A stretch of 64,000 nt of DNA from an uncultured Candidatus Saccharibacteria bacterium. Lineage in GTDB: Bacteria > Patescibacteriota > Minisyncoccia > Phycocordibacterales > JACOZG01. The position numbers and the translations under genes are program-made. The stretch lies in contig CAYWPU010000001.1 in the NCBI GenBank assembly GCA_964460805.1, positions 112,565 to 176,564 of the forward strand. The letters are read 5' to 3'. Under the pieces are notes generated by a model. It worked only from the letters and a program-made list of their open reading frames with translations, had not been told where the DNA came from and ran no database searches. Positions 33,815-55,317 of the stretch are shown here, one piece after another (within the stretch, counting starts at the first letter, position 1; each line of letters starts with the position of its first letter).

Positions 33815-33819
33815 ACTGT

Positions 33820-34871: not shown

Positions 34872-35010
34872 AATTGCCAGGACTCAAATCTGGGATTTCC
34901 CTGGTACTTGAGGTACTGAATCAGGCCCCAGGCCGTCATGAATACAGCCTGGGGCTAAATTATTGGAAAAGTAACGTCAAGATGCTAGGATATGAGATGC
35001 TTTCTAGACT

Positions 35011-35967: not shown

Positions 35968-36364
35968 CTCTTTGATCTCTCAGTTTCGACGTTATCCGGT
36001 TTTTGTTTTCGTAGGCGTGGTTGGTGTGGTACTTAACTTAGGGCTTACATATGTTTTCACTGACCTTCTAGGTTGGTGGTATTTACCCTCTTTTATATTA
36101 GCCACCTTGGTGACCTGGTCTGTTGGTTTCTGGCTTAATTCTCAGCTAACCTTTTCTGGTCACAACCAGGTCAATTTTTGGAAGTCTTATTTAAAGTTCA
36201 TATCCTTATATTTATTATTGAGTCCACCGGCTTTCTATCTCATTTATGCACTTACTTCCTGGGTTCATCTTCACTATCTTGTGAGCGCGTTATTGGTTAA
36301 TATTTTAAGTTCTGTGCTTACCTTCCTGATTACTCAGAGGCGAATTTTTAATTATTGCCCCTAA
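35960..36364 (+). CDS. GtrA-family membrane protein (polysaccharide synthesis/translocation)
   Basis: 134 aa. Four TM helices. N-terminus YPVFVFVGVVGVVLNLGLTYVFT is typical of GtrA. Confidence 0.65.
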   Translation: MSNSLISQFRRYPVFVFVGVVGVVLNLGLTYVFTDLLGWWYLPSFILATLVTWSVGFWLNSQLTFSGHNQVNFWKSYLKFISLYLLLSPPAFYLIYALTSWVHLHYLVSALLVNILSSVLTFLITQRRIFNYCP

Positions 36365-36372
36365 ATTTTTCT

Positions 36373-39876: not shown

Positions 39877-39885
39877 TATGCAAGC

Positions 39886-40641
39886 ATGAAAGTAACCGAA
39901 CAACTTCAGAAGGATCATTACGACAAGTTAGCTTTTGCCTACGAAGCGCACTATGACGACTACTGGAGTCAGGCTTACAGACGTCTTTTTGTCTACTCTA
40001 GGTTATTTCGGGATTCAGACTTGCGCGGCAAGGCGGTTCTGGAGGCAATGTGTGGCAGTGGTCAAGCAACCTCTTTTCTCATTAGCCACGGAGCTACGGT
40101 CACTGCACTAGACATATCCGATAAGTTGATTAAATCTCTCAGGTTAAAGCATCCCGGTGTTAAGGCTGTCTGTGCCTCTATTCTTGGTAGCGGTTTGCCA
40201 TCGGACCACTTCGACGCGGTAGTGGTTATTGGCGGGTTGCACCATCTCCACCCACATGTATCAGAGGCTGTCACTGAGATACATCGCGTTCTAAAAAAGA
40301 ACGGGCTTTTCTATTTTTTTGAACCGCATCAGTCCTCATGGTTTAATTGGTTGAGGTCAAGGTGGTACAGGATTGATCCCATGATGTTTGAGTCTAATGA
40401 AGCGGCAATTGACACTCGGTCTCTCGCAAGCCACTTTCGCGGTCGTTTCCGGCCAGAATGGGAACACTATGCCGGCAGTATTGCTTACCTTTTTGTTTAT
40501 AATTCACTGGTCTGGAGGATCCCATTATTTTTGAAAAAGTTTTATTCAGCGCCTCTGTTTGTCTTAGAGTGGTTGTTTAGTTTATTTGTGGGAGAAAAAA
40601 TGGGAATGTACGTGTTCGGTCGTTGGCGTAAGATCTTATGA
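39886..40641 (+). CDS. Class I SAM-dependent methyltransferase
   Basis: VLEAMCGSGQAT motif I and LKKNGLFYFFEP. Confidence 0.65.
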   Translation: MKVTEQLQKDHYDKLAFAYEAHYDDYWSQAYRRLFVYSRLFRDSDLRGKAVLEAMCGSGQATSFLISHGATVTALDISDKLIKSLRLKHPGVKAVCASILGSGLPSDHFDAVVVIGGLHHLHPHVSEAVTEIHRVLKKNGLFYFFEPHQSSWFNWLRSRWYRIDPMMFESNEAAIDTRSLASHFRGRFRPEWEHYAGSIAYLFVYNSLVWRIPLFLKKFYSAPLFVLEWLFSLFVGEKMGMYVFGRWRKIL

Positions 40642-42299
40642 CTTCAATTCGTAATCTAATTGGCCCCGTTTGGTTTTTTTGCGCAGTTTTGGTTGCTTAT
40701 ATTGGTGTACACCTCTATCTCCACCACGATCTGAATAAGTTCAATCTAAGTAGTGATGTCTGGATGGTGCAGTTTGCTAGCCTGCAGCAGCGTGGGGAGG
40801 TTTGGGACCATGTTCCGCCGTTCTACAATCAGGAGAAATATTATTTGACCTACCCTATTATCTATCACCTCAATCCCGGTCTGGAGAGTGGGATGTTTAC
40901 TTACCAAGCGATGATGCTTTTGTTAATCATTGCAACATACTTGGCTACCGGGTTGGTTTTTTACAAAATATTCGGTAATTGGCATGTAGCAGCATTGGGA
41001 GGTTTGATGTTTCTGATTCCCCACCAGATATTTACTACTCGTTTTGGTCTGCTTGGCTTCGGCAATCTTAGGGGGGTTGGTTTCTCTTTTCCCTTTTACG
41101 CTCCGCTGGGTTACTACTGGATTATGTGTGGTCTGCATCACCAGAAGCAGAATATCGCCCTAGCACTATTGGCGGCTTTTTCTGTATATCTGTACCCACC
41201 CTTCGGCGTGCTTGTTGTCCCCTTGATCGTTCTGACGGCCGCGATTCACACTGGCAGACGCATGCTTCGGCCGCTCATGTGGTTTGTGCTGGTCTATATT
41301 GGTGTTTCCGGATTGTTTTGGTACGGACACTTTTCCAATCCCCATGCTGGCATGTTAGACAATGATCCAGATCTTTCTGTGGATCAACTGGCTGCTCAAC
41401 AAGAGATCATTGATTACCGTATTCCCGATGGCTCACTGAGGGGGATAGATTTTGGCGTAGCCAAGAGGGCAGTGTGGGACGGGTTACCATTGATCGCTCT
41501 GCTTGTAATCTCTCCTTTCGTGTTAAGGAAAAAGCGGGAGGAACTTAGTCAGGATTCCATCGGATTCTATCATCTCAATCTCAAGCTTATGGCGGTGGTG
41601 CTCGCCTTTGTTCTGGGTGTAGAGGTTGTGAATACAATTCTGTATTTGTATTCACGTCCACCTTTTTTTATTGAACACCTGAGACTGCTGCGTTTTTTGG
41701 GGTTTGCACTGGTCGGGCAGAGTGTTTGGGTGATGTCAGTGCTTTTCTGGGGTTCTCGACGTTGGTTTTTGGGTTGCGTAGTGGTGACTTTTCTCCTGTT
41801 TTCCCCTCTATCTTTGTCGGCGCCACTGGTGCGTGACTTCACCAGACGTTTTTTTCCAGAAGAAATCCGCCGCCATTATAACCTTGCTCCCATTGTCCCT
41901 CCTAGCGAGACACGTTCACCAGAAAATCTTTCTCAGGCGGCTCTCTGGGCCAAGAGTCAGTCGGTTCACCCAGGCAATAAGTTCTTTGTTTTTAGCGATG
42001 ACCAAGAAGACTTTAAGTTTAAAGTGATTAGTCAACAAGAAACTAACCTTACCAACAAGGAAGGATCAATTTGGATTACTTCTGGTATAGAAAATAGTCA
42101 AAAGTGGTACCAAGAGCGCTTGCGGTATGATCAGGTAGTTGCGTCTGGAGATTTTGGTGCTATTGTTGACTTGGCGCGAAGTCTGCAGTCCTCGCATATC
42201 GTTTTACCAAGGGGCAAATTTACCGAACTTTATGAAGCGTCGGGAGAGTCGTTACGGTCGGTATATCGGAATGGCGATTACTCAATTTTAGAAATCTAG
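40638..42299 (+). CDS. Polytopic membrane protein, putative GT-C-fold glycosyltransferase (GtrC/ArnT-like), with a C-terminal soluble domain
   Basis: About 11 predicted TM segments over roughly 380 aa. Sits between a GtrB-like GT2 and a GT4. No sequence motif identified. Confidence 0.3.
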   Translation: MTSIRNLIGPVWFFCAVLVAYIGVHLYLHHDLNKFNLSSDVWMVQFASLQQRGEVWDHVPPFYNQEKYYLTYPIIYHLNPGLESGMFTYQAMMLLLIIATYLATGLVFYKIFGNWHVAALGGLMFLIPHQIFTTRFGLLGFGNLRGVGFSFPFYAPLGYYWIMCGLHHQKQNIALALLAAFSVYLYPPFGVLVVPLIVLTAAIHTGRRMLRPLMWFVLVYIGVSGLFWYGHFSNPHAGMLDNDPDLSVDQLAAQQEIIDYRIPDGSLRGIDFGVAKRAVWDGLPLIALLVISPFVLRKKREELSQDSIGFYHLNLKLMAVVLAFVLGVEVVNTILYLYSRPPFFIEHLRLLRFLGFALVGQSVWVMSVLFWGSRRWFLGCVVVTFLLFSPLSLSAPLVRDFTRRFFPEEIRRHYNLAPIVPPSETRSPENLSQAALWAKSQSVHPGNKFFVFSDDQEDFKFKVISQQETNLTNKEGSIWITSGIENSQKWYQERLRYDQVVASGDFGAIVDLARSLQSSHIVLPRGKFTELYEASGESLRSVYRNGDYSILEI

Positions 42300-42302
42300 C
42301 TT

Positions 42303-43406
42303 ATGAAATTTGTTTTTCTCGCTCCACGTTATCATACCAATCTGCACTTCCAGATTAAGACTCTGTGTGATCGCGGCCACCGGGTGTACTTCTTAAGCTT
42401 ATACCAGGGCGGTTCGGAGTATCACGGTGCGCTAGAGCCAGAGCTATTGGGTTACTCACCAGTATTCCTCTGGCTGAACGGGTGGTTAGACAGCTCTGGT
42501 GGCAACTTGACCAAGAATAACTTCGAGCTTAAGTATGGTTTTCCACCCCTGTCCCGTCTCCTTCGACGGTTGTGGCAGATTAAGCCCGATGTGGTGGTCA
42601 TCAAGAATATCGAGAGCGCCTACTCGCTTGTGTCAGCAGTGATAGCAAGATCGTTAGGCTCGCGTATTGTTTTTTTGATCCAGATCCCCAAGTATCGAGA
42701 GAAGCACAAGAGTTGGTCGGTAGCCTTGGTGGGCTGGCTCTTTGGAGCCTTGGCGCTCACTCCCATCCTGGGTGATGAGCGCTGGTCGAATGCCAATCCT
42801 AATTTGCGCTATCTACCGTTCAGTTATCCGGCGGTAGAGATTGCAGATAAGGCTGTTGCTCCGGGCGGTGTAAGACGACTGCTCTGCGTTGGCAAATTCC
42901 AAGAGCGCAAGGGTCAACTCCTGCTCTTGCGAGCAATAACCGCCTTGCGTTCAAATTATAAACTTGCGCTAACTCTGGTTGGCCAGACTGATGAAGATGC
43001 TTATTACAGCCAGCTGAGGGACTATGTCTGTAGTCAGAGTCTAGAAGACATCGTTACTCTCAAGTCTGATTTGCTGTGGGAAGAAGTGCAACAGGAATAT
43101 AAAAAGCATGATGTATTTATTCTTCCCAGTTGGGCTGAATCTGCAGCTTACTCGCCACTGGAGGCGATGGCCCACGGTTTACCGGTTTTGACCTCCGACG
43201 ACAACGGCACCAAGGATTATATTATTAACGGTGAGAATGGTTATCATTTTAGAGCAAAAGATGTCCAAGACTTGGCACACAAATTAGAGTTAATTATTAA
43301 AGACGAGGAAACAATACGTTGTATGGGTGCGCGCGGTCTGGAGGAAGCCAAAACTAAATATAATCCCGAGCTGTTCTACCAAAATTTCCTAGAGATGTTA
43401 GGCTAA
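42303..43406 (+). CDS. Glycosyltransferase family 4
   Basis: YSPLEAMAHGLPVLTSDDNGTKDYI. Confidence 0.7.
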   Translation: MKFVFLAPRYHTNLHFQIKTLCDRGHRVYFLSLYQGGSEYHGALEPELLGYSPVFLWLNGWLDSSGGNLTKNNFELKYGFPPLSRLLRRLWQIKPDVVVIKNIESAYSLVSAVIARSLGSRIVFLIQIPKYREKHKSWSVALVGWLFGALALTPILGDERWSNANPNLRYLPFSYPAVEIADKAVAPGGVRRLLCVGKFQERKGQLLLLRAITALRSNYKLALTLVGQTDEDAYYSQLRDYVCSQSLEDIVTLKSDLLWEEVQQEYKKHDVFILPSWAESAAYSPLEAMAHGLPVLTSDDNGTKDYIINGENGYHFRAKDVQDLAHKLELIIKDEETIRCMGARGLEEAKTKYNPELFYQNFLEMLG

Positions 43407-43411
43407 ACAGG

Positions 43412-45067
43412 ATGGATTACTGTGGTTTTCCCAAGAGCTTGATCCCCAGTCTGTGTTGCCCAGAACATGGATTGCAGCTGAGTCTAGAGCAGGCGGAGGT
43501 GGAGGATGGGCGAGTGGTCTACGAAGGATTGCTCCGTTGCTCCGCTGTCTCTTGTACTCGCGGACATGTAATTAGGGGTGGAATCTTGTATATGCTGGAT
43601 AGAGGACAGCTTAGCGAATTGCAGAAATCCGAGATTGTCTCACGTGATGATCAAGCTCCAGATTATGACCGTCGCCTAGCTAGTCGCCACGAGAAAGAGG
43701 TTCCCACTACTTTGGCAGAGTGTGGAAGGATCGCTGGTCGGAAGGTCATTGAATATGGCTGTGGTACGGGGAGATTTACTCTCCACCTGCTGGACGCTGA
43801 CGAGTTGCTGGCTGTGGACTTCTCCCTGAAGTCTCTGCAAATATTAAGTCGCAAGTTATCAAGGCACAATAGTAATGTTGGCTTGATCTGGGGAGATGTT
43901 GCCCGTTTGCGATTAGCGCCCAATTACTTTGATTTAGCACTCTCTACTCAAGTACTGGAGCATCTTGCTACTCCTCAAGATCGCCAGCGTTTTCTCACTC
44001 AAGTGGAGTCTTCACTTGTGGTTGGTGGTCGCTTGGTCTGCTCGGCCTACCACTATGACATACGACGCTGGTTCAAGTGCCTCCCTCAGGAGGGATTCCA
44101 TAATTCGGGTATTTTTTATCACTATTTTACGTTGAGCGAGATTGTTCAGGAAGTCAGTTCACGATTCCTGGTTTTGGCGGCTAGGCCGATTGATATCACT
44201 TGTCCACTAGAGTCGCGTCTTCGTATTTCTCCAACTTGGAGTGGTAGGTTTTCCCGATTATTGGAACGTTGTCCACCAATCAACCGGCTGGGGCACCTGG
44301 CGCTGGTGGTGGCGGTTAAGTTACCAGCGACCAGCCGTACTTGCGTCATCTATAGTTGGGGATTGTTGTTCCCCTGGTTGCTAGCCAAGCGCTGGTTCTG
44401 GTTCACAGAACCGTTTGATGTTCCGCGCACTGCGTTACTCAACTTCTTTTCTTATCAGGATATAAATGTTTCCGGTTTCCATCGTCGGCCAGGTCTTACC
44501 AGCGTGATAGACTTGAGTCAGAGTATTGAGGCCATTAGGTCTAAGATGCGGCCCAACTTCATACTCAAACAAATTAGTAAGGGGGAGAGGAGGGGTCTAG
44601 TGGCTAGACGCGATAAAGATGCCGGTTCGTTTAGGACACTATATCGGCGTTTCCGCTTGGTTCACCACCTACCAGTTGAGAAAATTAAACCATTACTTAG
44701 TCAGTCGCTGATTTATTCTGTATACAGTGGCAAGCGGGCAATTGCCAGCGGCCTGTTTATTAGTAATGGTGTCTATATGCGAGCTTGGGCGCTGGTGTCT
44801 CTAACCTCTCGCGAGGAACCAGATAGGGAACTGGTGGGTCAGGCTAATCGCCTACTTTTGTGGTACGCTATCCAGGATAGTAAAGCCTCTGGACACCAAC
44901 TATTTGATCTGGGGGGGATTTCTCCTGCTTCTCCGCATAAACATCTACGCACTTTAGCGGAGTTTAAAGAAGCCTTTGGTGGCGAGCGTCGCCAGACTTT
45001 CTATTATTTTAAGGTTTATTCTAGATTATTAAAAACTTGGATGAAAATAAGGGGTTGGGTATTTTAA
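43412..45067 (+). CDS. Fusion protein: N-terminal class I SAM methyltransferase plus C-terminal FemAB/CelD-like GNAT acyl-/aminoacyl-transferase domain
   Basis: VIEYGCGTGRFTLHLL (motif I). C-terminal ...WYAIQDSKASGHQLFDLGGISPAS...LAEFKEAFGG resembles the FemAB/PF13480 terminus. Confidence 0.5.
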   Translation: MDYCGFPKSLIPSLCCPEHGLQLSLEQAEVEDGRVVYEGLLRCSAVSCTRGHVIRGGILYMLDRGQLSELQKSEIVSRDDQAPDYDRRLASRHEKEVPTTLAECGRIAGRKVIEYGCGTGRFTLHLLDADELLAVDFSLKSLQILSRKLSRHNSNVGLIWGDVARLRLAPNYFDLALSTQVLEHLATPQDRQRFLTQVESSLVVGGRLVCSAYHYDIRRWFKCLPQEGFHNSGIFYHYFTLSEIVQEVSSRFLVLAARPIDITCPLESRLRISPTWSGRFSRLLERCPPINRLGHLALVVAVKLPATSRTCVIYSWGLLFPWLLAKRWFWFTEPFDVPRTALLNFFSYQDINVSGFHRRPGLTSVIDLSQSIEAIRSKMRPNFILKQISKGERRGLVARRDKDAGSFRTLYRRFRLVHHLPVEKIKPLLSQSLIYSVYSGKRAIASGLFISNGVYMRAWALVSLTSREEPDRELVGQANRLLLWYAIQDSKASGHQLFDLGGISPASPHKHLRTLAEFKEAFGGERRQTFYYFKVYSRLLKTWMKIRGWVF

Positions 45068-45076
45068 TTTACACAC

Positions 45077-46063
45077 ATGTACTTTATTATCACTGTCGAT
45101 ACCGAGGCCGACAACCAGTGGGCTAGAGAATCAACGATTACTCTCAATAATATCCCTTATCTGCAGCGCTTCCAGGATCTCTGCTGTAAATACGGATTCC
45201 CCGTCACCTACCTGGTGACTTATGAGGTGGCAGAGTCGGATGAGGCCGTTAATCTTCTAAAGCGTTTTGTTGCAGAGTGCGGAGCAGAAGTTGGGGCCCA
45301 TCTTCATCCCTGGACCAATCCGCCCTACGACCACAACGACCTATCCTGGGAGAGGAGTGTCCATCGCTTTCCTCATGAGCTTGAACGTAATCTGCTACGC
45401 TGCAAGCTGGAGTCGTTGACTAGTCTAATCACTAGTCGTTTCGGCGTTAGGCCTACCAGCTATCGGTCTGGTCGCTGGGGTTTCAATGGCGTGGTTGCGG
45501 TCGAGCTCATTAGACTGGGTTATCTGGTTGATTGTTCAGTGACACCCAAGCTTTCTTGGGTTTCTAATCTGGGCGATCCCCAAGGTCGAGGTGGTCCGGA
45601 TTATCGCTCAGCACCGGCTTGTCCGTATCATCTAGACTTGGATGATGTGAATAAGCCGGGTCCCAGTTCCTTGCTGGAAGTACCCCTTACCACCCTTTTC
45701 ACTACCAGATTATTTGCTGGCGGGGACCAGTCTCGCTTGGCTAAGTGGTTTCTGGGATTGCCCGATTCCCAGCTCAAGCGGTTACTTAATCACATGCTTT
45801 TCCGGATGCGGACATTGCGAGTATTCCCCAATTCTCGGGCCCGCATGTTCCGGTCCATACTAAGAGCCGCAGAGGCCGAGTGCTTACCAGTACTGGAGTT
45901 TATGATCCATTCCAGCGAGCTCATGCCGGGAGGTAGTCCGTATGCCCAGTCTGCCACGGAGGTGGAGCGGACTTATGTTTTACTGGAGAGGATGTTACAG
46001 TTGTTCCAGGCGCGTGGCCTGCAGGGTGTCACTCTCAGTGCTTACGCTCAGAAGGTTGATTGA
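45077..46063 (+). CDS. Putative carbohydrate esterase family 4 (polysaccharide deacetylase)-like protein
   Basis: IITVDTEAD (cf. NodB TFDDG) and HLHPWTN (cf. H-x-x-H). Weak. Confidence 0.3.
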   Translation: MYFIITVDTEADNQWARESTITLNNIPYLQRFQDLCCKYGFPVTYLVTYEVAESDEAVNLLKRFVAECGAEVGAHLHPWTNPPYDHNDLSWERSVHRFPHELERNLLRCKLESLTSLITSRFGVRPTSYRSGRWGFNGVVAVELIRLGYLVDCSVTPKLSWVSNLGDPQGRGGPDYRSAPACPYHLDLDDVNKPGPSSLLEVPLTTLFTTRLFAGGDQSRLAKWFLGLPDSQLKRLLNHMLFRMRTLRVFPNSRARMFRSILRAAEAECLPVLEFMIHSSELMPGGSPYAQSATEVERTYVLLERMLQLFQARGLQGVTLSAYAQKVD

Positions 46064-46066
46064 TGT

Positions 46067-46750
46067 ATGTTTAAGAGAATAGCTAAGCTTTTGCTAGAGA
46101 AGAACCAGAAACTGCGCCATTTTGCTGTGAGCAAACTGGTTAGATTACATAATTATAGCCATCACAAGATTGCCGAGCTGGCTAGTCTAGATGAGGGCAA
46201 TATTCACCCCAAGCACCGCTTAACACAGTACCACCGGTTTTTTTTAGACAGAGTGTCGCCAAACGATAGAGTTTTAGACGTGGGTTGTGGGGCGGGTTAC
46301 TTGGCTTACGCGATAGCCTCGGTAGCTAAACAGGTGGTGGGCGTGGATATCTCTGCGGCTAATATTGACTACGCTACAACTCACCACCACCGAGATAATC
46401 TAAAGTTTATTTTAGCCGATGTGACCACTTACCCCTGGGCAGGACATTTCGACAAGATAATCTTGTCGAATGTGCTGGAGCATATCAAGGATCGGATAGC
46501 TTTATTAAAGTCACTGGCTAAGCTTAGCGATACCATTCTCTTTAGGGTGCCAATGGAGACTCGCGATTGGCTGACAATGTACAAAAAAGAAAAAGGTTTT
46601 GAATATCGTTTGGATTCTACCCACTACATTGAGTATAGTCTTGAGACAATCCAGTCGGAGTTAAGTGCGGCTGGTTGGACCGTGGCCGAGTCTCAGATCA
46701 ACTGGGGGGAGTTTTGGGCTGTGCTTAAGAGAACACATGAACCGGCATAG
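46067..46750 (+). CDS. Class I SAM-dependent methyltransferase
   Basis: VLDVGCGAGYLAYAIA motif I. Confidence 0.7.
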   Translation: MFKRIAKLLLEKNQKLRHFAVSKLVRLHNYSHHKIAELASLDEGNIHPKHRLTQYHRFFLDRVSPNDRVLDVGCGAGYLAYAIASVAKQVVGVDISAANIDYATTHHHRDNLKFILADVTTYPWAGHFDKIILSNVLEHIKDRIALLKSLAKLSDTILFRVPMETRDWLTMYKKEKGFEYRLDSTHYIEYSLETIQSELSAAGWTVAESQINWGEFWAVLKRTHEPA

Positions 46751-47825
46751 CATTTTATTCCTCGTTAATAGCCTTGGTGTTGGCGGAGCGGAGCGGGCCA
46801 TGGTGGCCCAGGCTAATTATTTAGCTGATCGGGGCCAGAAGATTGTTTTTGTAACCTTACGACCCACAAATCAGGCTCTTTCTCTGGTGGGCGAATTGGA
46901 TGGTCGCGTGGAGTATTTTTGTTTAGATTGGCGGGCGCTTTTTGACCCTCACTCGTTTAGGAAAATAAATACCCTCGTTCGGTCTTGTTATGCAAGAACA
47001 ATATATGCCACTTTGGATCAGGCTATCATTGTGTCTAAATTGCTTAAGATTGCTCACCCGGGATTGAGATTAGTTATACGCGAGTCGGGCGTGGCCAGTC
47101 GCAAGAGTTGGCGGCTGAAGCTCTTGGATCTCGTTACCAACTGGATGTGCTACTCTATCATTGCTGTGTCTCCCGAGGTGGCAGAGAGTCTATTGGCCTA
47201 TCAGTCCATCTACGAAGGCAAAATCAGAATTGTCTCCAATGGAGTAGATTTACCTGCCCCGGTGATTCGTTCCAATAGAGATGTCCTCATCCTATTGCAT
47301 GTCGGGTCTATGAATAATCCAGGCAAAAGGCAGAGTGAGATCATTAAAATTTTTGGCGAAATTGTGCGTCGGACAAAAGAAAAACTCTCACTCGTCTTAG
47401 TGGGTGATGGTATATGTCGTCCAAGATTGGAGGCTCAAGTGCAATTCGCCGGTTTGGGGCAGAAGGTTATCTTTACCGGCTTACTCTCTCCCGCAGAGCT
47501 CTCTAATCTCTACGATCAGGCAGATATCTTTCTGCTCTATTCGGTAACTGAGGGGTCCCCCAATGTTGTTCTTGAGGCGATGGCTCACGGCTTGCCCATC
47601 CTGTCCACCCGTATTCCTGGAGTGAATGAGTGTGTGCTGGATCAAGCGACTGGATTATTGTCAGATGAGGGTCAACAAGAGCGGTATATTGATAACCTGC
47701 TCCGTATGATCAGCGACCGGGGTCTCAGACTCTCGCTGGGGGAGGCGGGCAGAAAGCGGGTCATGGCCCGCTTTCTCTTGGGACACACAATAGCTAAACT
47801 GGAACCGATTTTACTTTTTGACTAA
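46737..47825 (+). CDS. Glycosyltransferase family 4
   Basis: N-terminus ILFLVNSLGVGGAERAM and C-terminus VTEGSPNVVLEAMAHGLPILSTRIPGVNE. Confidence 0.7.
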   Translation: MNRHSILFLVNSLGVGGAERAMVAQANYLADRGQKIVFVTLRPTNQALSLVGELDGRVEYFCLDWRALFDPHSFRKINTLVRSCYARTIYATLDQAIIVSKLLKIAHPGLRLVIRESGVASRKSWRLKLLDLVTNWMCYSIIAVSPEVAESLLAYQSIYEGKIRIVSNGVDLPAPVIRSNRDVLILLHVGSMNNPGKRQSEIIKIFGEIVRRTKEKLSLVLVGDGICRPRLEAQVQFAGLGQKVIFTGLLSPAELSNLYDQADIFLLYSVTEGSPNVVLEAMAHGLPILSTRIPGVNECVLDQATGLLSDEGQQERYIDNLLRMISDRGLRLSLGEAGRKRVMARFLLGHTIAKLEPILLFD

Positions 47826-48648
47826 AATACGATTAAATCTGAGTCTAAAAATGCAGAAACTTAACTTCTCTCATTTTCGCCAAATTGTCCACGTCACCAA
47901 GCGGCAACGCATGGAAAGCGACTGGCTCTACGCTCTACTGCGCTCTGTTTCTGTCCGCTGTTCCTTTTGGCTCCTGAGTCTTTTTCCAAGTATTAGGCCT
48001 AACCACGTGTCATTAATGATGGTGCTGCTGGTGGGAGGGGTACTGATATCTAATCTCTACCCCTTCTCCGTTCCGGCGTATCTGGTTTTGCTAACCCAGC
48101 TCTTGCTCTTGCAATTAGCTTCCTTGTGTGATCGTGTTGATGGTGAGATAGCACGTTATCAGCAGCACTTCACTCAACGAGGCATATATTACGACCGAGT
48201 TTTTCATTTCCTTTACCCTTTTGCTCTCTATCTTGCTGTGGGTCACTACTTTGCCCAACTTCACAATCTCTCTTGGTGGCTAACGCTTGCTATGTTGCTA
48301 GCCATCCTGTCTGTTTTGGTGGGGATACAGGGCAAGATGCGTCATCATATCAAGTTTAAGATTTTGCTCGAAGGGCATCCCGAACTTATCAGGGATCTGT
48401 ATCCCAGCAGTTCTACCTCTCCGATTTTGGGGAGAGGGTGGCGCTTTTTTCATTATCTCGTTTTCATGACCTATACCTGGGTATCGGGCCTGTATTTATT
48501 CTTGCTGATCTTGAGCCAGTTCTCTCTGTATTGGTCTTCTGGGCTCTACCTCTTACACGCGTTTATTTCTATCGTCTGGTTCTCTTATTACTTGTTAGTA
48601 ACCTACCCCAGTCACGCTTTGTTCTCCAAGCAAGACTTCCAACTCTAA
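47818..48648 (+). CDS. CDP-alcohol phosphatidyltransferase-family membrane protein
   Basis: CDRVDGEIARYQQHFTQRGIYYD fits D-G-x2-A-R-x8-G-x3-D. Multiple TM segments. Confidence 0.45.
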   Translation: MTKIRLNLSLKMQKLNFSHFRQIVHVTKRQRMESDWLYALLRSVSVRCSFWLLSLFPSIRPNHVSLMMVLLVGGVLISNLYPFSVPAYLVLLTQLLLLQLASLCDRVDGEIARYQQHFTQRGIYYDRVFHFLYPFALYLAVGHYFAQLHNLSWWLTLAMLLAILSVLVGIQGKMRHHIKFKILLEGHPELIRDLYPSSSTSPILGRGWRFFHYLVFMTYTWVSGLYLFLLILSQFSLYWSSGLYLLHAFISIVWFSYYLLVTYPSHALFSKQDFQL

Positions 48649-49919
48649 GTCGAAGTTGACGGAAGCGGGAAGGCTTTATGGAAATAGTATTGGTAGACGA
48701 AAGTATTGAGGCCGTTACCGATGATTGAACCACAGACAGCGCCCCAGATACCCCATACTGGCAACATTAGGGCAAAAACACCGATCCGTATGAGCGGCGC
48801 GATAATACGCACAGCGTAGAGCTCTTTCTGCTTCATATGAGCGGTCATAGCGGTAGAGAAGAAGGTGCGTGGGAAGAAGAGTAGCGAGAGGGCGTAGACC
48901 TGAGAGAGCAGTAGTGCGCTTGTGTACTTGGGGAAGAAGAGGGGAAAGAGTAGGGGTGAGACTACCCAATAAGCCGCCACTGCTAACAAGATCAGCACCT
49001 CGAGGCGTAGCATTTTACCAGGTAGTGTCTGGCGGATTGTCTCGGGTGTGTCGCTGGCGCTGAGCTTGGGTAGAGCGAGGACGGACATGTTCTGGAGCAA
49101 GCTCTTGATCTGTCCTGGCGCTGAGGTTGCAATGATGTAGACAGCCAGTTGCGCCGCGCCTAAGTAGTGGAAGATCAACAACTTATCGATTTGTCCGGCT
49201 ACAGTCTTGAGTACTTCCATCAGACTGAGGTGGAAGCCGTAGCGGCCCAAAGAGGTAGTGTTGCTACTGACGGCGAGAGAGCTGGGTCGTAGACGGTAGA
49301 GAAAGAGGCTCTGCAGGATAATCTCTGGCACGAAGTAGACAACGATCAATAAGAGCAAATTGTCACTAAAGAAGAGGAACAATAAGATGCTAAGGGTGTT
49401 GAGTATCCTCACGGCGCTGGCGCTGTAGGCTAGGCGTCGGAAATCTCGCCGACCATTGAGGAGGGCCTCATACATGCCGCTCGCCGACACCAGCGGGATA
49501 CTTACCGCGCAGATCATCACACTGAGTGCGAGTGTGATATTGCCTTGTGCCAGATAATATAACGCTACGCCACCAGAGAGCACAGTGGCGAGTAGGGAAT
49601 AGGAGAGCTTTTTCTGTAATAGCCGCCAGAAGCTGGTCTCGTCACCGGAGGCGACACCCTTGATCGCGGCGGTATTGATACCGGGGAAGGTGGCCACCAT
49701 CAGCACGCTCATAATGGAGAGCACGTAACGGTAGTTGCCGTAAGTTTCAGCTGGGAGGAGATTGGCGAAGGCGATAGCGAGCAGTAATGACGAGATGGAT
49801 GCCACGGCCTGACTAAAGGTGAGCCAGACGCTGCCCTTGGCCAGATAGACCATATCAGTCTTGGTGTAGCGCTCGCTCCAGCGCAGAGTCTGGTGGGCCT
49901 TGTGTCGCCAGGTGCTCAT
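48645..49919 (-). CDS. Wzx-like oligosaccharide flippase (MOP superfamily polysaccharide biosynthesis protein)
   Basis: About 12 TM segments. N-terminal LPAETYGNYRYVLSI is typical of Wzx/PF01943. Confidence 0.6.
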   Translation of the reverse strand: MSTWRHKAHQTLRWSERYTKTDMVYLAKGSVWLTFSQAVASISSLLLAIAFANLLPAETYGNYRYVLSIMSVLMVATFPGINTAAIKGVASGDETSFWRLLQKKLSYSLLATVLSGGVALYYLAQGNITLALSVMICAVSIPLVSASGMYEALLNGRRDFRRLAYSASAVRILNTLSILLFLFFSDNLLLLIVVYFVPEIILQSLFLYRLRPSSLAVSSNTTSLGRYGFHLSLMEVLKTVAGQIDKLLIFHYLGAAQLAVYIIATSAPGQIKSLLQNMSVLALPKLSASDTPETIRQTLPGKMLRLEVLILLAVAAYWVVSPLLFPLFFPKYTSALLLSQVYALSLLFFPRTFFSTAMTAHMKQKELYAVRIIAPLIRIGVFALMLPVWGIWGAVCGSIIGNGLNTFVYQYYFHKAFPLPSTST

Positions 49920-50000
49920 TTTGTCTCCATACTACCATTTCCGCGGAGATGTGCTAAAGTGTTCTGCAATATAGTAAACACTGACAAACTCTGTAATTAC

Positions 50001-52181
50001 ATGAGCTTTCAACGCTATTTAATCTGGGCGATTGCGAGTGGCCTCTTCTTGCTTCTCCTCACCCCCCTGATCATCTCCAGTAGCCTCTTTTTCCCATATA
50101 TTACCGGCAAAGCCTTTTTCTTCCGGGTTATCGTGGAGGTCGTCTTCTGTCTCTGGCTCTTGCTGGCCTGGCGGGAGCCGGTCTATCGCCCGCAACGCTC
50201 GTGGATCATGTGGGGTGTGCTGGCACTTTTTGCCGCAAGCGCGCTGGCTACTGTATTTGGTGCTAACCCATACCGCAGCTTCTGGTCCAACTGGGAGCGC
50301 ATGGGCGGTCTGGTGAGCTATCTACACTTGCTAGCCTACTTTTTAGTAATCAGCGCCGTGTTCCGCAGTGAGCAGATATGGCGTTGGTTTTTCCGTAGTT
50401 CCATTTTTGTGAGCATGTGTGTGGCTGGTTACGGTTTAACGCAGTTCAGCGCCACGCGCGTGGATAGCACCCTTGGCAATGCCACTTACTTGGCTGTGTA
50501 CATGCTCTTCCATATTTTCCTCACAGCTTTCTTGCTGAAGCAAGACTGGAAAATAGTCTGGACAAGATATCTATATGGTCTAGTCGGCTTGCTACAGATC
50601 CTGATCTTGTATAAAACAGCCACGCGCGGTGCCATCCTAGGCTTGCTGGCGGGCGTTGGTGTGACGGCCTTGTGCTTGCTGGCTAAGCGCTGGCGCGAGC
50701 CGCGAGTGCGCAAGCTTGGCCTCGGTTTATTGCTGGTGTTGCTTGTGATTGTAGCGGGCTTCTGGAGCGTGCGGGATAGCAATTTTGTGAAAAACAGCTC
50801 CGTGCTCTCGCGCTTTGCCGATATCTCGCTACAAGAAGGCGGTAGTGCAGAGTCTCGTTTTACCATCTGGCAGATGAGCTTGCGTGGATTTGCCGAGCGG
50901 CCACTGCTCGGCTGGGGACCAGAGAACTTTGAGCTGGTTTTTGCTAAATATTTTGAGCCCAAGCTCTGGCGCCAGGAGCCCTGGTTTGATCGTTCGCACA
51001 ATATCTTCCTAGACTGGCTAATTGACGCCGGCGCGCTGGGCTTGCTCGCGTATCTCTCGCTATTTGCCTCGGCGCTCTGGTATATCTGGCGCTCGCGCGT
51101 GCGCGACTCGCTCACTCAGAGCCTGTTCACCGGCTTGCTCGCGGCTTATCTTGTTAATAATATTTTCGTCTTTGATAACCTGGTGAGCTATATTTTATTC
51201 TTCTCCCTGCTCGCTTATTTGCACGCCCAATCTTTGCCTAATCAACTTGAGCAGAGAGTGAGACACGTAGACGCGCCTGTCACTCCCGCGTTCTGGCTCA
51301 CGGGTGGCGTGCTTCTGGTTGCCCTCTGTGGTGCGGTGTATGTGGTGAACATCAAGCCGATGTTCGCGGCCTCGCGCTTGGTGCAGGTGCTTGGTCCGGT
51401 GAGTCAGGGCGTGGCGCCAGATGTGATCGTGAGCGAGCGCTTGGAGAAGTTCCGGCAGATTGCCTCTGCCCGCACTCTTGGCTCGCGCGAGGCGGCCGAG
51501 CAACTGGCCAACCAGGCCACGCAGATTGCCGCCTCTCCGGCCGTATCTGAGCCGCTCAAGCAAGAGATCAGCGCTCTGGCGATTGCCGAGATGGAGCGCG
51601 AGGCTCTCGCCGCGCCAGCGAGCGCGCGGACTAAATTAATTCTCGGCACCACTTACCTCAAGCTTGGCAAGACGCCGGAAGCTCTAGAGATTCTTGCTCA
51701 AGCTCACGAGCTGGCACCGCGCAAGCAGGCTATCATCTTCGCTCTTGCCTCGGCGCATCTCGCCAGCGGTGACGAGGAGACGGCCCTTGAGCTGGCCCAG
51801 CAAGCTTTCAATCTAGACGAAGCTTATCCAGAAGCGCGCAAGTTCTACGCGCTCGCGCTCATCCAGAGCGGCGATGTAACCACGGCGGGAGAGATCCTTG
51901 CTGGCGACCAGGCACTAGAGCTAGACGACAGATTCTTGAACGCTTATGTGGAGGCCAAGCGCTATGATCTCGTCTTCAAGCTCTGGCAAGATAAAGTGAA
52001 AAAAGAGCCAGGCAATACCCAGTTCCGGTTCTCACTTGCCGCGGCTTACCTGATGACGAACCAGCGCGCTTTGGCAATTCAGGAGTTAGAAACTGCGGCG
52101 GAGATTGACCCGCGCCTGGTGCCGCAAGTCGCGCGCCTAGTGAGCGAGATCCGCGCGGGGCGGAATCCAATTTCCCAATAA
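50001..52181 (+). CDS. O-antigen ligase-like (Wzy_C domain) polytopic membrane protein with C-terminal TPR repeats
   Basis: About 10 TM segments. Wzy_C-like loop region ...LYKTATRGAILGLLAG.... C-terminal roughly 250 aa of TPR-like helices. Confidence 0.55.
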   Translation: MSFQRYLIWAIASGLFLLLLTPLIISSSLFFPYITGKAFFFRVIVEVVFCLWLLLAWREPVYRPQRSWIMWGVLALFAASALATVFGANPYRSFWSNWERMGGLVSYLHLLAYFLVISAVFRSEQIWRWFFRSSIFVSMCVAGYGLTQFSATRVDSTLGNATYLAVYMLFHIFLTAFLLKQDWKIVWTRYLYGLVGLLQILILYKTATRGAILGLLAGVGVTALCLLAKRWREPRVRKLGLGLLLVLLVIVAGFWSVRDSNFVKNSSVLSRFADISLQEGGSAESRFTIWQMSLRGFAERPLLGWGPENFELVFAKYFEPKLWRQEPWFDRSHNIFLDWLIDAGALGLLAYLSLFASALWYIWRSRVRDSLTQSLFTGLLAAYLVNNIFVFDNLVSYILFFSLLAYLHAQSLPNQLEQRVRHVDAPVTPAFWLTGGVLLVALCGAVYVVNIKPMFAASRLVQVLGPVSQGVAPDVIVSERLEKFRQIASARTLGSREAAEQLANQATQIAASPAVSEPLKQEISALAIAEMEREALAAPASARTKLILGTTYLKLGKTPEALEILAQAHELAPRKQAIIFALASAHLASGDEETALELAQQAFNLDEAYPEARKFYALALIQSGDVTTAGEILAGDQALELDDRFLNAYVEAKRYDLVFKLWQDKVKKEPGNTQFRFSLAAAYLMTNQRALAIQELETAAEIDPRLVPQVARLVSEIRAGRNPISQ

Positions 52182-52884: not shown

Positions 52885-55317
52885 ATGTCGCTTTTAACCA
52901 AGCTATTTGGCGATAATAGCACGCGCTATCTCAAGACGCTCCAGCCGCTAGTAGAGCGGATTAACGAGCTGGAGGCGGGCCTAGCCAGCTTGGAGACAGC
53001 AAGCTTGCCAGCTGAGACGGCAAAACTAAAAGCGCGCTTGGCCGAGGGCGAGAGCTTGGATGATATCTTGCCGGAGGCCTTTGCTCTCGCGCGCGAGGCG
53101 GCGCGGCGCACGCTGGGCCAGCGGCACTACGACGTGCAGTTGCTTGGTGGCATTGCTTTGCACCAGGGCAAAGTGGCGGAGATGAAGACGGGCGAGGGTA
53201 AGACGCTCGTCTCTACCTTGCCCGCTTATCTCAATGCGCTGGCGGGACGAGGCGTGCACTTGGTAACTGTTAACGACTATCTCTCGCGCCGCGATGCGGT
53301 GTGGATGGGTCAGATCTACGCCGCGCTGGGTCTCACCGTGGGTGTGATCAATCACGACGCTTCTTACCTCTACGATCCCGCGCATAGTGAGAAAGCACTG
53401 GACGAGAGCCGCGATGCCTCCGGCTCTTATAAAGTGTTCTACGAGTTCCTCAAGCCGTGCACGCGCCGTGAGGCTTATCTGGCCGATATTACTTACGGCA
53501 CTAATAACGAATTTGGCTTTGATTACCTGCGTGATAACTTGGCTTACGAGACCGCTCGCGTCTCGCAGATCAGCTTGCCAGATCGTCCGCGGCACCATTA
53601 TGCGATTATTGATGAAGTAGATTCTATCCTGATAGACGAAGCTAGAACTCCCTTGATTATCTCTGCCCCAGTTGCTGAAGCTGATAGCTTATATGCCCGC
53701 TTTGCGAAAATTTCTGCCGCACTCGAGCCGGAGGCTGATTATACTGTGGAAGAGAAAACACGGACGATTGCGCTGACAGAAGCAGGGATAAGCAAAGCAG
53801 AGCAGATGCTGGGCGTGAGCGATATTTATACTGAGGGAGGAGTGAAGTACGTCCATCACTTGGAGACGGCTGTGCGGGCGCGAGCATTATATGAGAAGGA
53901 TCGTGACTATGTGGTGCGCGAGGGTGAGGTGGTGATTGTGGACGAGTTCACTGGCCGGATGCAGCCTGGCCGGCGCTGGAGCGAGGGCTTGCACCAGGCG
54001 ATTGAGGCTAAAGAAGGTGTGGCAGTGAAGCAGGAATCGCGCACCATGGCGAGCATCACCTTCCAGAACTACTTTAAGCTCTATGAGAAGGTGGCGGGTA
54101 TGACAGGTACGGCTCTGACGAGCGAGGAGGAGTTCCAGCGCGTTTACGGCTTAGACACTGTTGCCTTGCCTACGCACCGCGAGAACAAGCGCCAGGACTT
54201 GAACGATCTCATCTTCCAGACAGAAAAAGGCAAATTGCAGGCAGTGGTCAAGAAAATCAGAGAATTGCATGAGTCTGGCCAGCCGGTGCTGGTGGGTACA
54301 ATCTCTATTGAGAAGAACGAGAAGTTGTCTGCTTATCTTAAGAAAGAGGGCATACCTCACCAGCTCTTGAATGCAAAGAACAACGAGCAGGAAGGTTTGA
54401 TCATCGCCGAGGCGGGCAAGCGGGGGAGCGTGGTGCTGGCTACCAATATGGCTGGTCGCGGCGTGGATATCAAACTGGGTGGGCCAGATGCAACCGAGCA
54501 AGAGCGTGAGGAGATCAGAGCGCTGGGCGGACTCTGCGTGCTGGGTACCGAGCGGCACGAGGCGCGGCGGATTGATAACCAGCTCCGCGGCCGCGCCGGC
54601 CGCCAGGGCGATCCAGGAGTAACGCAGTTCTATATTTCTCTAGAGGATGATCTATCGCGCATCTTTGAGGCCGAGAGGGTGAAGAACTTGATGGGCCGCT
54701 TTGGTATCCCGGAGGATGAGCCAATAGAGGCCAAGCTCGTCTCCCGGGTGATTGAGAGCGCGCAGACCAAGATAGAGGGCTTCCACTTTGACGCCCGCAA
54801 ACATCTCTTAGATTACGATAATGTGCTCAATCATCAGCGCGCCAGCATCTACGAGCGCCGCCGGGGATTGCTCTTTGGCGACCCGGATGCCTTGCGCGAG
54901 GCACTGGCTGGTCTTGGCGAGGAGGAAAAGCGCGACTTGAGTGAAGCGCAAGAACAAGTCTTGCGCCGGGCGATTTTGCAGATAATTGACCTGAATTGGT
55001 TGGAGCACTTAGAAGCGATGGAGCATATGCGCAGTAGTGTGGGCTTGCGCGCCTATGGTCAGCGCGATCCGCTGGTGGAATATAAGAAAGAAGGTCTAAA
55101 TATGTTCAAGTTGATGGAGGCGAATATTCTAGAAGAAGTTAAGCGTTTCCTCGCCAATTTGCCGGCTAATATTGAAGCAGTGAAGACGGAAGCCGTAGCG
55201 ATTCCCATCACCGCGTCTAGTTCTCCGGAAGCTAGTTCTATCCAACCAGCCGTGGGTCGCAATGATCCCTGCCCCTGCGGCAGTGGTAAGAAGTATAAAA
55301 AGTGCCACGGGAAATAA
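52885..55317 (+). CDS. secA: Preprotein translocase ATPase SecA
   Basis: DEAD motor motifs (MKTGEGKT, DEVDSILIDEART). C-terminal zinc motif CPCGSGKKYKKCHG. Confidence 0.95.
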   Translation: MSLLTKLFGDNSTRYLKTLQPLVERINELEAGLASLETASLPAETAKLKARLAEGESLDDILPEAFALAREAARRTLGQRHYDVQLLGGIALHQGKVAEMKTGEGKTLVSTLPAYLNALAGRGVHLVTVNDYLSRRDAVWMGQIYAALGLTVGVINHDASYLYDPAHSEKALDESRDASGSYKVFYEFLKPCTRREAYLADITYGTNNEFGFDYLRDNLAYETARVSQISLPDRPRHHYAIIDEVDSILIDEARTPLIISAPVAEADSLYARFAKISAALEPEADYTVEEKTRTIALTEAGISKAEQMLGVSDIYTEGGVKYVHHLETAVRARALYEKDRDYVVREGEVVIVDEFTGRMQPGRRWSEGLHQAIEAKEGVAVKQESRTMASITFQNYFKLYEKVAGMTGTALTSEEEFQRVYGLDTVALPTHRENKRQDLNDLIFQTEKGKLQAVVKKIRELHESGQPVLVGTISIEKNEKLSAYLKKEGIPHQLLNAKNNEQEGLIIAEAGKRGSVVLATNMAGRGVDIKLGGPDATEQEREEIRALGGLCVLGTERHEARRIDNQLRGRAGRQGDPGVTQFYISLEDDLSRIFEAERVKNLMGRFGIPEDEPIEAKLVSRVIESAQTKIEGFHFDARKHLLDYDNVLNHQRASIYERRRGLLFGDPDALREALAGLGEEEKRDLSEAQEQVLRRAILQIIDLNWLEHLEAMEHMRSSVGLRAYGQRDPLVEYKKEGLNMFKLMEANILEEVKRFLANLPANIEAVKTEAVAIPITASSSPEASSIQPAVGRNDPCPCGSGKKYKKCHGK

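Follow-up and report, generated by a model that had tools for sequence, protein, structure and literature searches.

The gene at 50001..52181 of the window (the whole stretch of DNA that was analysed, 64,000 nucleotides) encodes a membrane protein with the fold and catalytic residues of the WaaL ligases joined to a C-terminal TPR superhelix. The gene belongs to the conserved core of the ultra-small Patescibacteria of the Paceibacteria type and lies between a variable glycan-synthesis island and secA. The protein probably attaches the sugars made by this island to surface proteins or to another acceptor that is not LPS. The explanation that we prefer, with the balance of probability about even, is an en bloc glycan ligase of the WaaL fold (GT-C_B, GT121-like) that likely serves as a general O-oligosaccharyltransferase for conserved secreted or surface proteins.

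A WaaL-type membrane domain with a C-terminal TPR superhelix

The gene and the parts of its product are located as follows.

50001..52181, + strand: Wzy_C-TPR gene, ATG start, 726 aa
50001..51356, + strand: membrane domain (aa 1-452), 13 transmembrane (TM) helices, WaaL (GT-C_B / GT121-like) fold
50772..51005, + strand: extracytoplasmic catalytic loop (aa 258-335), with invariant columns
51417..52154, + strand: C-terminal TPR superhelix (aa 473-718), about 15 helices, from Pfam and the AF2 model

The enclosing open reading frame extends over 49893..52181 (+), and the ATG at 50001 is the preferred start; the 726-aa product then agrees with its homologues in length and at the N-terminus (P0002, at 73% identity, likewise has 726 aa). 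Gene callers elsewhere chose a GTG at 49959, which would give 740 aa. A protein in public assemblies (P0001) is 100% identical to it. Pfam returned the Wzy_C match on which a preliminary description of this DNA had staked its reading of an O-antigen-ligase-like Wzy_C protein with TPRs: Wzy_C (PF04932) covers aa 196-352 with 86.9 bits (cut-off 31.7; E 1.5e-24), and several TPR families cover aa ~500-726, TPR_19 with 48.1 bits (cut-off 25), so that both parts of that reading rest on matches far above chance. The same description had proposed scoring against PglL-type models, and in the Pfam scan neither PglL_A (PF15864) nor Wzy_C_2 (PF11846) matched the ligase at E<=0.01; by the rule taken from PMC12645811, these two domains alongside Wzy_C define the PglL/PglS class. 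A tblastn search of the ligase against plasmids gave 0 matches, and our literature search for this Wzy_C-TPR family in Patescibacteria/Parcubacteria found no relevant paper. One homologue bears the JGI name of an IctB-type 'bicarbonate transporter', presumably a legacy label for Wzy_C proteins, and this assignment was rejected because both the fold and the catalytic triad indicate a glycan ligase.

Since the PDB profile search and Foldseek were swamped by TPR proteins when run with the full-length protein, they were rerun with the 480-aa membrane domain; a single-sequence phmmer search of the membrane domain against the PDB returned nothing meaningful. The AF2 model (pLDDT 88.7, pTM 0.85) contains 13 TM helices, three more than the core of roughly 10 suggested in the preliminary description. 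Compared with WaaL of Cupriavidus metallidurans (PDB 7TPG/7TPJ, GT121), to which it is 16% identical, the window protein adds a TM helix, the 13th, and beyond it ~270 C-terminal residues (aa 453-726) with the TPRs, and it carries two outer-loop motifs, WSNxERM (aa 95-101) and FVFDN (aa 389-393), which are invariant in its family and specific to it. The charge distribution follows the positive-inside rule, with 18 Lys and Arg residues in the proposed cytoplasmic loops versus 5 in the short outer ones; its sign is identical in 38/38 aligned sequences. The TPR superhelix follows TM13 in the model, and this topology places it outside the cell. The array itself had been correctly anticipated, as a periplasmic one; 'extracytoplasmic' is the appropriate term, because the host belongs to the CPR, a clade that has been described as monoderm (bioRxiv 10.1101/2021.05.31.446380).

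Conservation is highest in the catalytic loop, with a mean identity to the query of 66% versus 39% in the TPR region, and the invariant positions of this loop are R271, R286, W290, E299, G304, G306, E326 and the motif WFD(R)xHN (aa 328-334). Three catalytic residues show no variation in 38 sequences: R209 at the outer end of TM8 (codon at nt 50625-50627), R286 and H333. In the alignment they correspond to R191, R265 and H313 of the C. metallidurans enzyme, residues that act in Und-PP binding or acceptor activation (PMC10920833); the same conserved His is needed in Wzy_C-domain O-oligosaccharyltransferases (PMC9829042). A Wzy_C match, the GT-C_B fold and two Arg plus one His on the outer face mark the protein as a member of the Wzy_C / O-antigen-ligase family (PF04932; GT121-like).

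The glycan island, the Wzx-like flippase and a fixed gene order

The features on either side of the ligase gene are the following.

28565..48648, + strand: glycan-synthesis island of low GC, the presumed donor pathway (Pfam and NCBIfam matches)
48645..49919, - strand: Wzx-like flippase, Polysacc_synt (PF01943) with 44.8 bits, about 10 hydrophobic segments
49920..50000, no strand: divergent intergenic region between the Wzx and ligase genes (coordinates and sequence)
52885..55317, + strand: SecA, downstream neighbour, NCBIfam equivalog with 1018.8 bits (cut-off 814)

The earlier statement that the ligase gene closes a large glycan cluster was borne out by the genes found: the cluster, rich in glycosyltransferase and methyltransferase genes, spans 28.5-49.9 kb when the Wzx-like gene is included. 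The island encodes seven GT4 enzymes, a PgfS/ArnC-like GT2, GtrA, an epimerase, an AsnB-like amidotransferase (an asparagine-synthase homologue, at 36355-38196), six methyltransferases, a CDP-alcohol phosphotransferase two genes upstream of the ligase, and a 9-TM protein without a family. This last protein (40638-42299) was considered as a Wzy/ligase paralogue and, with an hhalign probability of 0.4% and 0 Pfam/NCBIfam matches, is left unassigned. No initiating phosphoglycosyltransferase is recognisable within the island, and the pair of GtrA and a polyprenyl-phosphate-type GT2 hints at a second, monophosphate-linked route. The GC content of the island is 0.45-0.51 versus 0.558 for the ligase gene, which resembles the flanks in this respect.

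The neighbour of the ligase gene had been described as a convergent Wzx-like flippase gene; its identity and adjacency stand, and its orientation does not, as the gene is on the minus strand and therefore divergent from the ligase gene, being convergent solely with the upstream CDP-OH_P_transf gene. The two divergently transcribed genes are separated by 39-81 bp, and the only promoter-like sequence in the intergenic region is one weak match to the consensus, on the minus strand. Of 77 related loci, 15 have this divergent arrangement of Wzx and ligase genes (phmmer E 1e-52 to 1e-82).

Relatives of the ligase are numerous and, wherever an organism name is attached to a protein-search match, belong to Patescibacteria. 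The protein search gave 3,288 matches among the scored candidates, the best 120 of which are all 694-824 aa long, all carry Wzy_C and nearly all carry TPRs; at E<=1e-30 the relatives form 4,602 clusters (50% identity). Within the GTDB collection of species-representative genomes, a relative is encoded by at least 596 stretches, and the best 80 of these are Patescibacteria MAGs without exception (80/80).

Across the related loci the order is conserved, with the island followed by the ligase and then by SecA, which lies on the same strand within 6.5 kb downstream of the ligase in 46/51 loci; MurB is often encoded directly downstream of the ligase. The gene content upstream varies between genomes: NeuB/CMP-sugar genes occupy this position in four loci (L004, L006, L007, L008), and GT4 and methyltransferase genes do so in the window, while the ligase keeps an identity of 41-58% beside glycan clusters of unrelated content. 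When rplB was considered as a possible flank of the island in other genomes as well, ribosomal protein genes of any kind were found within 10 kb upstream in 0 of the related loci. A pattern of 'different donors, same acceptor' has been described by the CAZy authors for donor-promiscuous ligases and oligosaccharyltransferases (PMC10920833), and the fixed ligase beside a variable island fits such an enzyme and not a Wzy polymerase.

In the region between the ligase and SecA genes, we also observed an RNA candidate of ~230 nt (52281-52510) that is conserved, covarying and pseudoknotted. Rfam scans of the window and of at least six orthologous loci, run with gathering as well as permissive thresholds, assigned no consistent family to it.

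Proposed mechanism of transfer and the probable nature of the acceptor

According to the mechanism that we propose, the variable neighbouring island would assemble a glycan on undecaprenyl diphosphate, and the adjacent divergent Wzx would flip it across the single membrane. On the outer side, R209 and R286 of the ligase would hold the diphosphate, and H333 in the 78-residue outer loop would activate an acceptor hydroxyl, upon which the whole glycan would be transferred. The acceptor would be recruited by the extracytoplasmic TPR superhelix, tethered via the extra 13th TM helix. A design analogy is provided by TMTC1-4, polytopic GT-C proteins that use a lipid-linked donor and a non-cytoplasmic TPR array for protein O-glycosylation; they belong to another GT-C subclass, use dolichyl-phosphate mannose as the donor and have no known sequence relationship to the ligase. 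We infer that the acceptor is most likely one or more conserved secreted or surface proteins, because neither an outer membrane nor a lipid A-core is expected in the host clade and because the ligase stays constant while the glycan genes change. The TPR region in itself is no proof of a protein acceptor, since TPR domains serve as scaffolds in the export of polysaccharides too, as indicated by the title of a paper in the reference list of PMC2943079. The preliminary description had envisaged transfer to pilins or other surface proteins and not to lipid A-core; given relatives confined to Patescibacteria among the named matches and a monoderm host clade, a lipid A-core acceptor is indeed not expected, in contrast to WaaL, and it is the pilin-specific part, which lacks genetic linkage, that fell away.

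Among the known systems, WsfB of Paenibacillus alvei and WsaB of Geobacillus stearothermophilus are O-oligosaccharyltransferases for S-layers of monoderm bacteria and are encoded with glycan clusters (PMC2943079). WsfB, compared here by description only, likewise combines Wzy_C with a C-terminal TPR region and has an AsnB homologue in its cluster (PMC2943079), and the window gene shows the same architecture of Wzy_C, C-terminal TPR and adjoining glycan cluster, although the hosts of WsfB and WsaB are Firmicutes and the window host is a member of Patescibacteria. The general O-oligosaccharyltransferases PglL/PglS of Neisseria, Acinetobacter and Burkholderia share the Wzy_C core and the essential His with the window protein (PMC9829042); they have many targets, to which they lack genetic linkage, and O-oligosaccharyltransferases can use diverse glycans (PMC12645811, PMC9829042), whereas they differ from it in the PglL_A and Wzy_C_2 domains that mark them and in their diderm hosts with a periplasm. 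A role of the ligase as a general protein O-glycosyltransferase, of the kind of WsfB, is plausible.

The pilin-like genes of the window lie near its start.

4630..6120, + strand: three pilin-like genes after PilB and PilC, with N_methyl in two and a weak match in the third

The three prepilin genes reported earlier at 4.6-6.1 kb were recovered, in that two pass the Pfam N_methyl threshold and the third has a G-F-G-L-L-E motif with a weak N_methyl match (E 0.051), in keeping with the N-terminal G-F-x-L-x-E motifs of the pilin-like proteins; they look like a minor-pilin set. Nevertheless, the preliminary proposal of a candidate pilin O-oligosaccharyltransferase, that is, a TfpO/PilO/TfpM-like enzyme dedicated to the type IV pilins of this genome, is very unlikely in our assessment, and a pilin-specific role is unsupported. 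The genome does encode PilB, PilC and pilin-like proteins, one of them with a Thr-rich C-terminal stretch, but the acceptor site of TfpO/PilO is the C-terminal Ser of the pilin, and the three proteins end in ...WSN, ...FNN and ...GSY, with a C-terminal Ser in 0/3. We know of no TPR domain in TfpO/PilO or TfpM, unlike the window ligase. Wzy_C is found in all known classes of O-oligosaccharyltransferase, TfpO/PilO and TfpM resemble the ligase in having it without PglL_A or Wzy_C_2 (PMC12645811), and some Saccharibacteria pilins have been bioinformatically predicted to be O-glycosylated (PMC12206443). However, pilin-dedicated enzymes (TfpO/PilO, TfpM, PglS) usually adjoin the gene of their target pilin (PMC12645811), whereas the ligase is 44 kb from the pilin-like genes, with glycolysis, recJ, comEC and EF-G/EF-Tu/S10-operon (ribosomal) genes in between, and the pilus locus of the window contains no oligosaccharyltransferase gene. 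The related loci agree with this separation: within 10 kb of the ligase, homologues of PilB, PilC or the pilins were detected in 0/85 loci (1.35 Mb), and prepilin-motif ORFs in 1/85 (L070 only).

A ligase for a non-protein acceptor, such as a glycolipid, a lipoteichoic-acid-like anchor or peptidoglycan/lipid II, would yield an anchored surface polysaccharide, with the TPR region acting as a scaffold to wall-synthesis or export partners, and we regard it as rather unlikely. It would agree with a fold and catalytic triad that are those of WaaL, a lipid-acceptor enzyme, with the nearby CDP-alcohol phosphotransferase gene, with the frequent MurB neighbour and, going by the paper title cited above, with TPRs as export scaffolds; GT121 enzymes moreover occur in Gram-positives, for which the CAZy authors speculate on ligation to peptidoglycan (PMC10920833). 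That idea is a hypothesis only in the same source, however, the literature consulted contained no Wzy_C-family enzyme of a monoderm that uses such an acceptor, and the precedents found for Wzy_C with TPR are the protein O-oligosaccharyltransferases WsfB and PglL (PMC2943079). In addition, two residues invariant within the TPR region, P573 and K575, suggest one conserved macromolecular partner, which speaks against this alternative. The protein might also be a polymerase of the Wzy type, linking repeat units of the island glycan on undecaprenyl diphosphate, its TPR region resembling a co-polymerase or export scaffold: Pfam Wzy_C covers some polymerases, the PDB entry of WaaL is titled 'polymerase/ligase', Wzx adjoins the gene, and no other Wzy is recognisable within the island, where the 9-TM protein has no family match. 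Wzy polymerases are specific to their own repeat unit, yet the ligase retains its sequence beside unrelated glycan clusters and matches the core genome rather than the island in GC content. Moreover, polymerases of the same CAZy clan have Asp/Glu at the position of the ligase His (PMC10920833), whereas His333 is invariant here, so that neither the Asp/Glu of clan GT-C1 nor a repeat-unit-dependent sequence is found in the ligase, and we give the polymerase explanation a low probability.

Implications for the cell surface of Patescibacteria

A large share of bacterial diversity belongs to Patescibacteria, which live attached to other cells and whose surface chemistry is almost uncharted. The ligase is conserved and fixed beside a variable glycan locus and can therefore serve as an anchor for finding surface-glycan loci in thousands of MAGs. 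The database label 'O-antigen ligase' is misleading for organisms without LPS.

Extending the preferred protein-acceptor reading, we tentatively suggest as a possibility that Paceibacteria possess a universal, fixed system of general O-glycosylation, in which the secA-adjacent ligase would load the island glycan onto pili, S-layer and exported proteins, and the resulting strain-specific sugar coat of these episymbionts would govern host recognition and phage or immune evasion; it is conceivable, with similar reserve, that the glycan includes nonulosonic acids in some genomes. With a lipid or a wall polymer as the acceptor, the ligase would represent a new way of anchoring surface polysaccharides in a monoderm. 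Should the acceptor be a protein, this family would constitute a large unstudied clade of bacterial O-oligosaccharyltransferases, which could supply donor-promiscuous enzymes for glycoengineering.

Architecture and catalytic site of the ligase

The ligase gene occupies the following frame:
49893-52181 (+), open reading frame; translation from the ATG at 50001 gives 726 aa.

The N-terminus (MSFQRYL...) and the length of this product agree with those of homologues, including one (P0002) that is 73% identical and likewise 726 aa long; other gene callers chose an alternative GTG start at 49959 (740 aa). Pfam placed Wzy_C (PF04932) at aa 196-352 with 86.9 bits (E 1.5e-24; gathering score 31.7) and matched several TPR families at aa ~500-726, while NCBIfam added only TPR-type partial matches. 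These scores are far beyond what chance would give and confirm the composite Wzy_C-TPR architecture of the preliminary description. Its estimate of about 10 transmembrane helices has to be replaced by 13, as counted in the AlphaFold model (pLDDT 88.7, pTM 0.85), which also displayed a TPR superhelix of ~15 helices at aa 473-718. Lys and Arg numbered 18 in the proposed cytoplasmic loops vs 5 in the short outer loops, a bias of identical sign in 38/38 aligned sequences. In the predicted topology, the chain continues after the WaaL-like TM12 through a cytoplasmic loop into helix 13, which places the TPR superhelix outside the cell.

The family-invariant residues R209, R286 and H333 aligned with R191, R265 and H313 of Cupriavidus metallidurans WaaL (CmWaaL, PDB 7TPG/7TPJ). 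The equivalent conserved His is needed in Wzy_C-type O-oligosaccharyltransferases (PMC9829042), and polymerases of the same clan carry Asp or Glu at this position (PMC10920833). The most conserved segment was the outer loop at aa 258-335, bearing R286 and H333, with a mean identity to the query of 66% compared to 39% in the TPR. Within the TPR, P573 and K575 were invariant across the family, which suggests that the TPR binds a single conserved partner, not a variable one. Collectively, the ligase is a WaaL-fold enzyme whose Und-PP-binding and acceptor-activating site is intact on the outer face, with the TPR arm pointing outward.

A core gene at the edge of a variable glycan island

The GC content of the ligase gene (0.558) is like that of flanking core genes, and that of the upstream 26-50 kb stretch, the glycan island, is 0.45-0.51. 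The island encodes seven GT4 enzymes, one GT2 (nearest to the polyprenyl-phosphate glycosyltransferases AglJ, ArnC, PgfS and PpgS), GtrA, an epimerase, an AsnB-like amidotransferase, six methyltransferases, a 9-TM protein without a family, a CDP-alcohol phosphotransferase and a Wzx-like flippase:
48645-49919 (-), Wzx-like gene, divergent from the ligase gene across a 39-81 bp gap.

The flippase gene does directly precede the ligase, as first described; the two are not convergent, since the flippase gene lies on the minus strand and converges solely on its upstream neighbour, the CDP-alcohol phosphotransferase gene. No gene in the island was recognisable as an initiating phosphoglycosyltransferase of the WecA/WbaP/PglC type. 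The epimerase, GtrA, AsnB-like, GT2 and 9-TM (553 aa, no family match) genes at 35011-42299 could form a second glycosylation route with a polyprenyl-monophosphate donor. A 551-aa protein (43412-45067, +) joins a class I SAM methyltransferase domain to a Trm112-like zinc-ribbon N-terminus and a FemAB-like C-terminal region (both weak matches), a fusion that is unusual in a glycan cluster. Ahead of the island, within 23185-28560, the S10 operon (S10, L3, L4, L23, L2) ends after rplB at 26098, with no S19 gene found after it in the window, and is followed by a 118-aa single-TM ORF (-) and a VirD4/TraD-like coupling-protein ATPase gene (26866-28560). The same ATPase-like gene heads a run of GT4 genes upstream of the ligase in two related loci (L042 and L070), and none of the related loci has ribosomal genes in the 10 kb ahead of the ligase.

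All six homologues on long contigs (42-53% identical) kept the order glycan genes, ligase, SecA, with glycan genes that differ from those of the window. NeuB and CMP-sugar synthetase genes in four related loci (L004, L006, L007 and L008) indicate nonulosonic acids there. Counts were extended to 85 non-redundant related loci (1.35 Mb).

Neighbourhood of the ligase in related loci
SecA on the ligase strand, ≤6.5 kb downstream: 46/51 loci (those long enough to tell)
Same divergent Wzx directly upstream: 15/77 loci
One or more of the window's glycan genes with an upstream homologue: 41/59 loci
PilB, PilC or pilin homologue ≤10 kb away: 0/85 loci
Prepilin-motif ORFs ≤10 kb away: 1/85 loci (L070)

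These data establish the ligase as a core gene associated with Wzx and variable glycan genes. Where glycan genes vary and the transferase at their constant border does not, a donor-promiscuous ligase or oligosaccharyltransferase is to be expected; a Wzy polymerase specific to its repeat unit should show the reverse.

A structured RNA candidate between the ligase gene and secA

A strongly structured stretch lies in the 700 bp that separate the ligase gene from secA:
52281-52510 (+), structured-RNA candidate, ~230 nt, 207 consensus positions
52265-52273 (+), its promoter-like box

Its minimum free energy was -117.8 kcal/mol vs -83.0 ± 4.5 kcal/mol for shuffled sequences (z = -7.7). The candidate is kept at the nucleotide level in 37/85 related loci (among them L004:12947-13180, L006:12133-12368 and L048:12214-12426) and in 36 of these lies downstream of the ligase gene on the same strand, usually 25-200 nt past the stop codon; other positions were immediately upstream of murB or at some distance upstream of secA. 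An alignment of 15 sequences revealed two hairpins and two pseudoknot helices that place their 3' strands within the loop of the long 3' hairpin; in it, an invariant GUGAGUGC is closely preceded by an extended -10-like box (TGCTAnnAT). Across the 49 proposed pairs, 95.8% of cells were paired and 30 pairs showed compensatory changes, values reached by 0/500 shuffles; slid controls gave 35-51% pairing and at most 10 compensatory pairs. No Rfam 15 family matched the candidate in the window or the orthologous loci, and the window yielded neither a tRNA nor a tmRNA. The candidate may be an undescribed ncRNA, or else serve as the leader of murB or secA. A tiny ORF (52696-52785, +), some 100 nt ahead of secA, encodes a 29-aa peptide composed almost exclusively of Lys, Thr, Ala and Arg (MKKKKKATKKKVAKRKTTKKKATKRKSRR); a terminator-like hairpin comes next, at 52824-52845. 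Gene callers mark a different, 61-aa frame at this ORF.

The acceptor and the place of the family

The island would assemble a glycan on polyprenyl diphosphate, the flippase would flip this lipid-linked glycan, and the ligase would transfer it en bloc onto a hydroxyl of the acceptor that its TPR recruits. The general idea already proposed, that lipid A is not the acceptor, is well supported. Lipid A-core is not expected in the host, and the enzyme, with residues of its TPR, is conserved while donors change, which favours one or more conserved exported proteins, a reading we hold with middling confidence. We speculate that candidates include pilins and the conserved proteins encoded downstream of the ligase at 55515-59006 (among them the products of 55515-57083 and 57924-59006), which look like surface proteins. 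A non-protein acceptor (glycolipid, LTA-like anchor or peptidoglycan) appears rather unlikely, even with several points in its favour: WaaL itself takes a lipid acceptor, a CDP-alcohol phosphotransferase is encoded close by (and MurB in other genomes), the CAZy authors speculate that Gram-positive GT121 members ligate glycans to peptidoglycan (PMC10920833), and, by a paper title in the reference list of PMC2943079, TPRs scaffold polysaccharide export as well. An enzyme dedicated to pilins, the role first suggested, is highly improbable. The three genes placed at 4.6-6.1 kb do exist, as pilin-like genes:
4630-6120 (+), three pilin-like genes, 44 kb from the ligase gene.

Housekeeping genes lie in between (triosephosphate isomerase, PGK, RecJ, ComEC, EF-G, EF-Tu and the S10 operon start), and with no PilB, PilC or pilin homologue within 10 kb of the ligase in any of the 85 loci, a pilin-specific role is unsupported. 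The sequences of the three minor-pilin-like proteins lend it no support either, and pilin linkage, the context criterion for TfpO/PilO, TfpM and PglS (PMC12645811), is lacking for the window ligase.

The pilus locus (950-8029) comprises PilB, a 188-aa ORF (-), PilC, the three short pilin-like genes and one for a pilin-like protein of 632 aa without the conserved Glu5 in its N-terminal segment; this arrangement resembles a minor-pilin/tip-adhesin set more than a major pilin gene, and the locus contains no Wzy_C gene. The 522-aa product of 55515-57083 has a TM helix at each terminus, a long acidic Glu/Val/Ala region between them, Ser/Thr/Ala-rich 'LAISAEFSFST' repeats, a Gly run and a weak PG_binding_1 match, that of 57924-59006 has PKD and fn3 domains, and a third downstream neighbour is a 272-aa lipoprotein-like protein. 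In L004 and L006 too, homologues of the proteins of 55515-59006 are encoded downstream of the ligase.

By domain, fold and catalytic residues alike, the ligase belongs to the Wzy_C/GT121-like ligase superfamily. The suggested match to PglL-type enzymes held for Wzy_C itself and failed for the markers PglL_A and Wzy_C_2, whose absence (Pfam) rules out a PglL/PglS-type identity. Eukaryotic TMTC enzymes are GT-C glycosyltransferases with lumenal TPRs, a design that the ligase recalls as an analogy only. A precedent from monoderms, matching in architecture by its description, is WsfB of Paenibacillus alvei, a predicted S-layer O-oligosaccharyltransferase in which Wzy_C carries a C-terminal TPR (PMC2943079); its glycan cluster includes an asparagine-synthase homologue, as the window island includes an AsnB-like gene.

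The best 120 of 3,288 protein matches were all 694-824 aa long and all contained Wzy_C, nearly all with TPR matches, and those among them named by organism came from Patescibacteria, Parcubacteria or the candidate phyla Nomura-, Vogel-, Taylor-, Niyogi- and Lloydbacteria. Scanning one genome per GTDB species with the family-invariant motifs WSN[FY]ERM[EG] and WFDR[SAT]HN[IV] revealed at least 596 genome stretches encoding a relative, the best 80 being Patescibacteria MAGs without exception. When the HMM was limited to the membrane domain, an exhaustive search yielded 4,602 clusters at 50% identity (E ≤ 1e-30). By these relatives, the window belongs to a CPR genome of Paceibacteria type. Many TPA assemblies with this Paceibacteria-type gene and its synteny (L014, L015, L018 and others) bear the title 'uncultured Candidatus Saccharibacteria bacterium'. 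Such labels may be generic or erroneous, and by themselves they are no basis for placing the family in Saccharibacteria. To our knowledge, CPR lack LPS. They have also been placed in a monoderm clade (bioRxiv 10.1101/2021.05.31.446380), and the database name 'O-antigen ligase' is therefore functionally empty for this family. With 13 TM helices, the TPR fusion and its own invariant outer-loop motifs (WSNxERM and FVFDN), the family is best classed as a CPR clade of its own, and a very large one, within the known ligase/O-oligosaccharyltransferase kind. Our literature search found no publication on the clade, which is annotated yet uncharacterised. The ligase provides an anchor for finding the variable surface-glycan loci of Patescibacteria and is a candidate general O-glycosylation enzyme.
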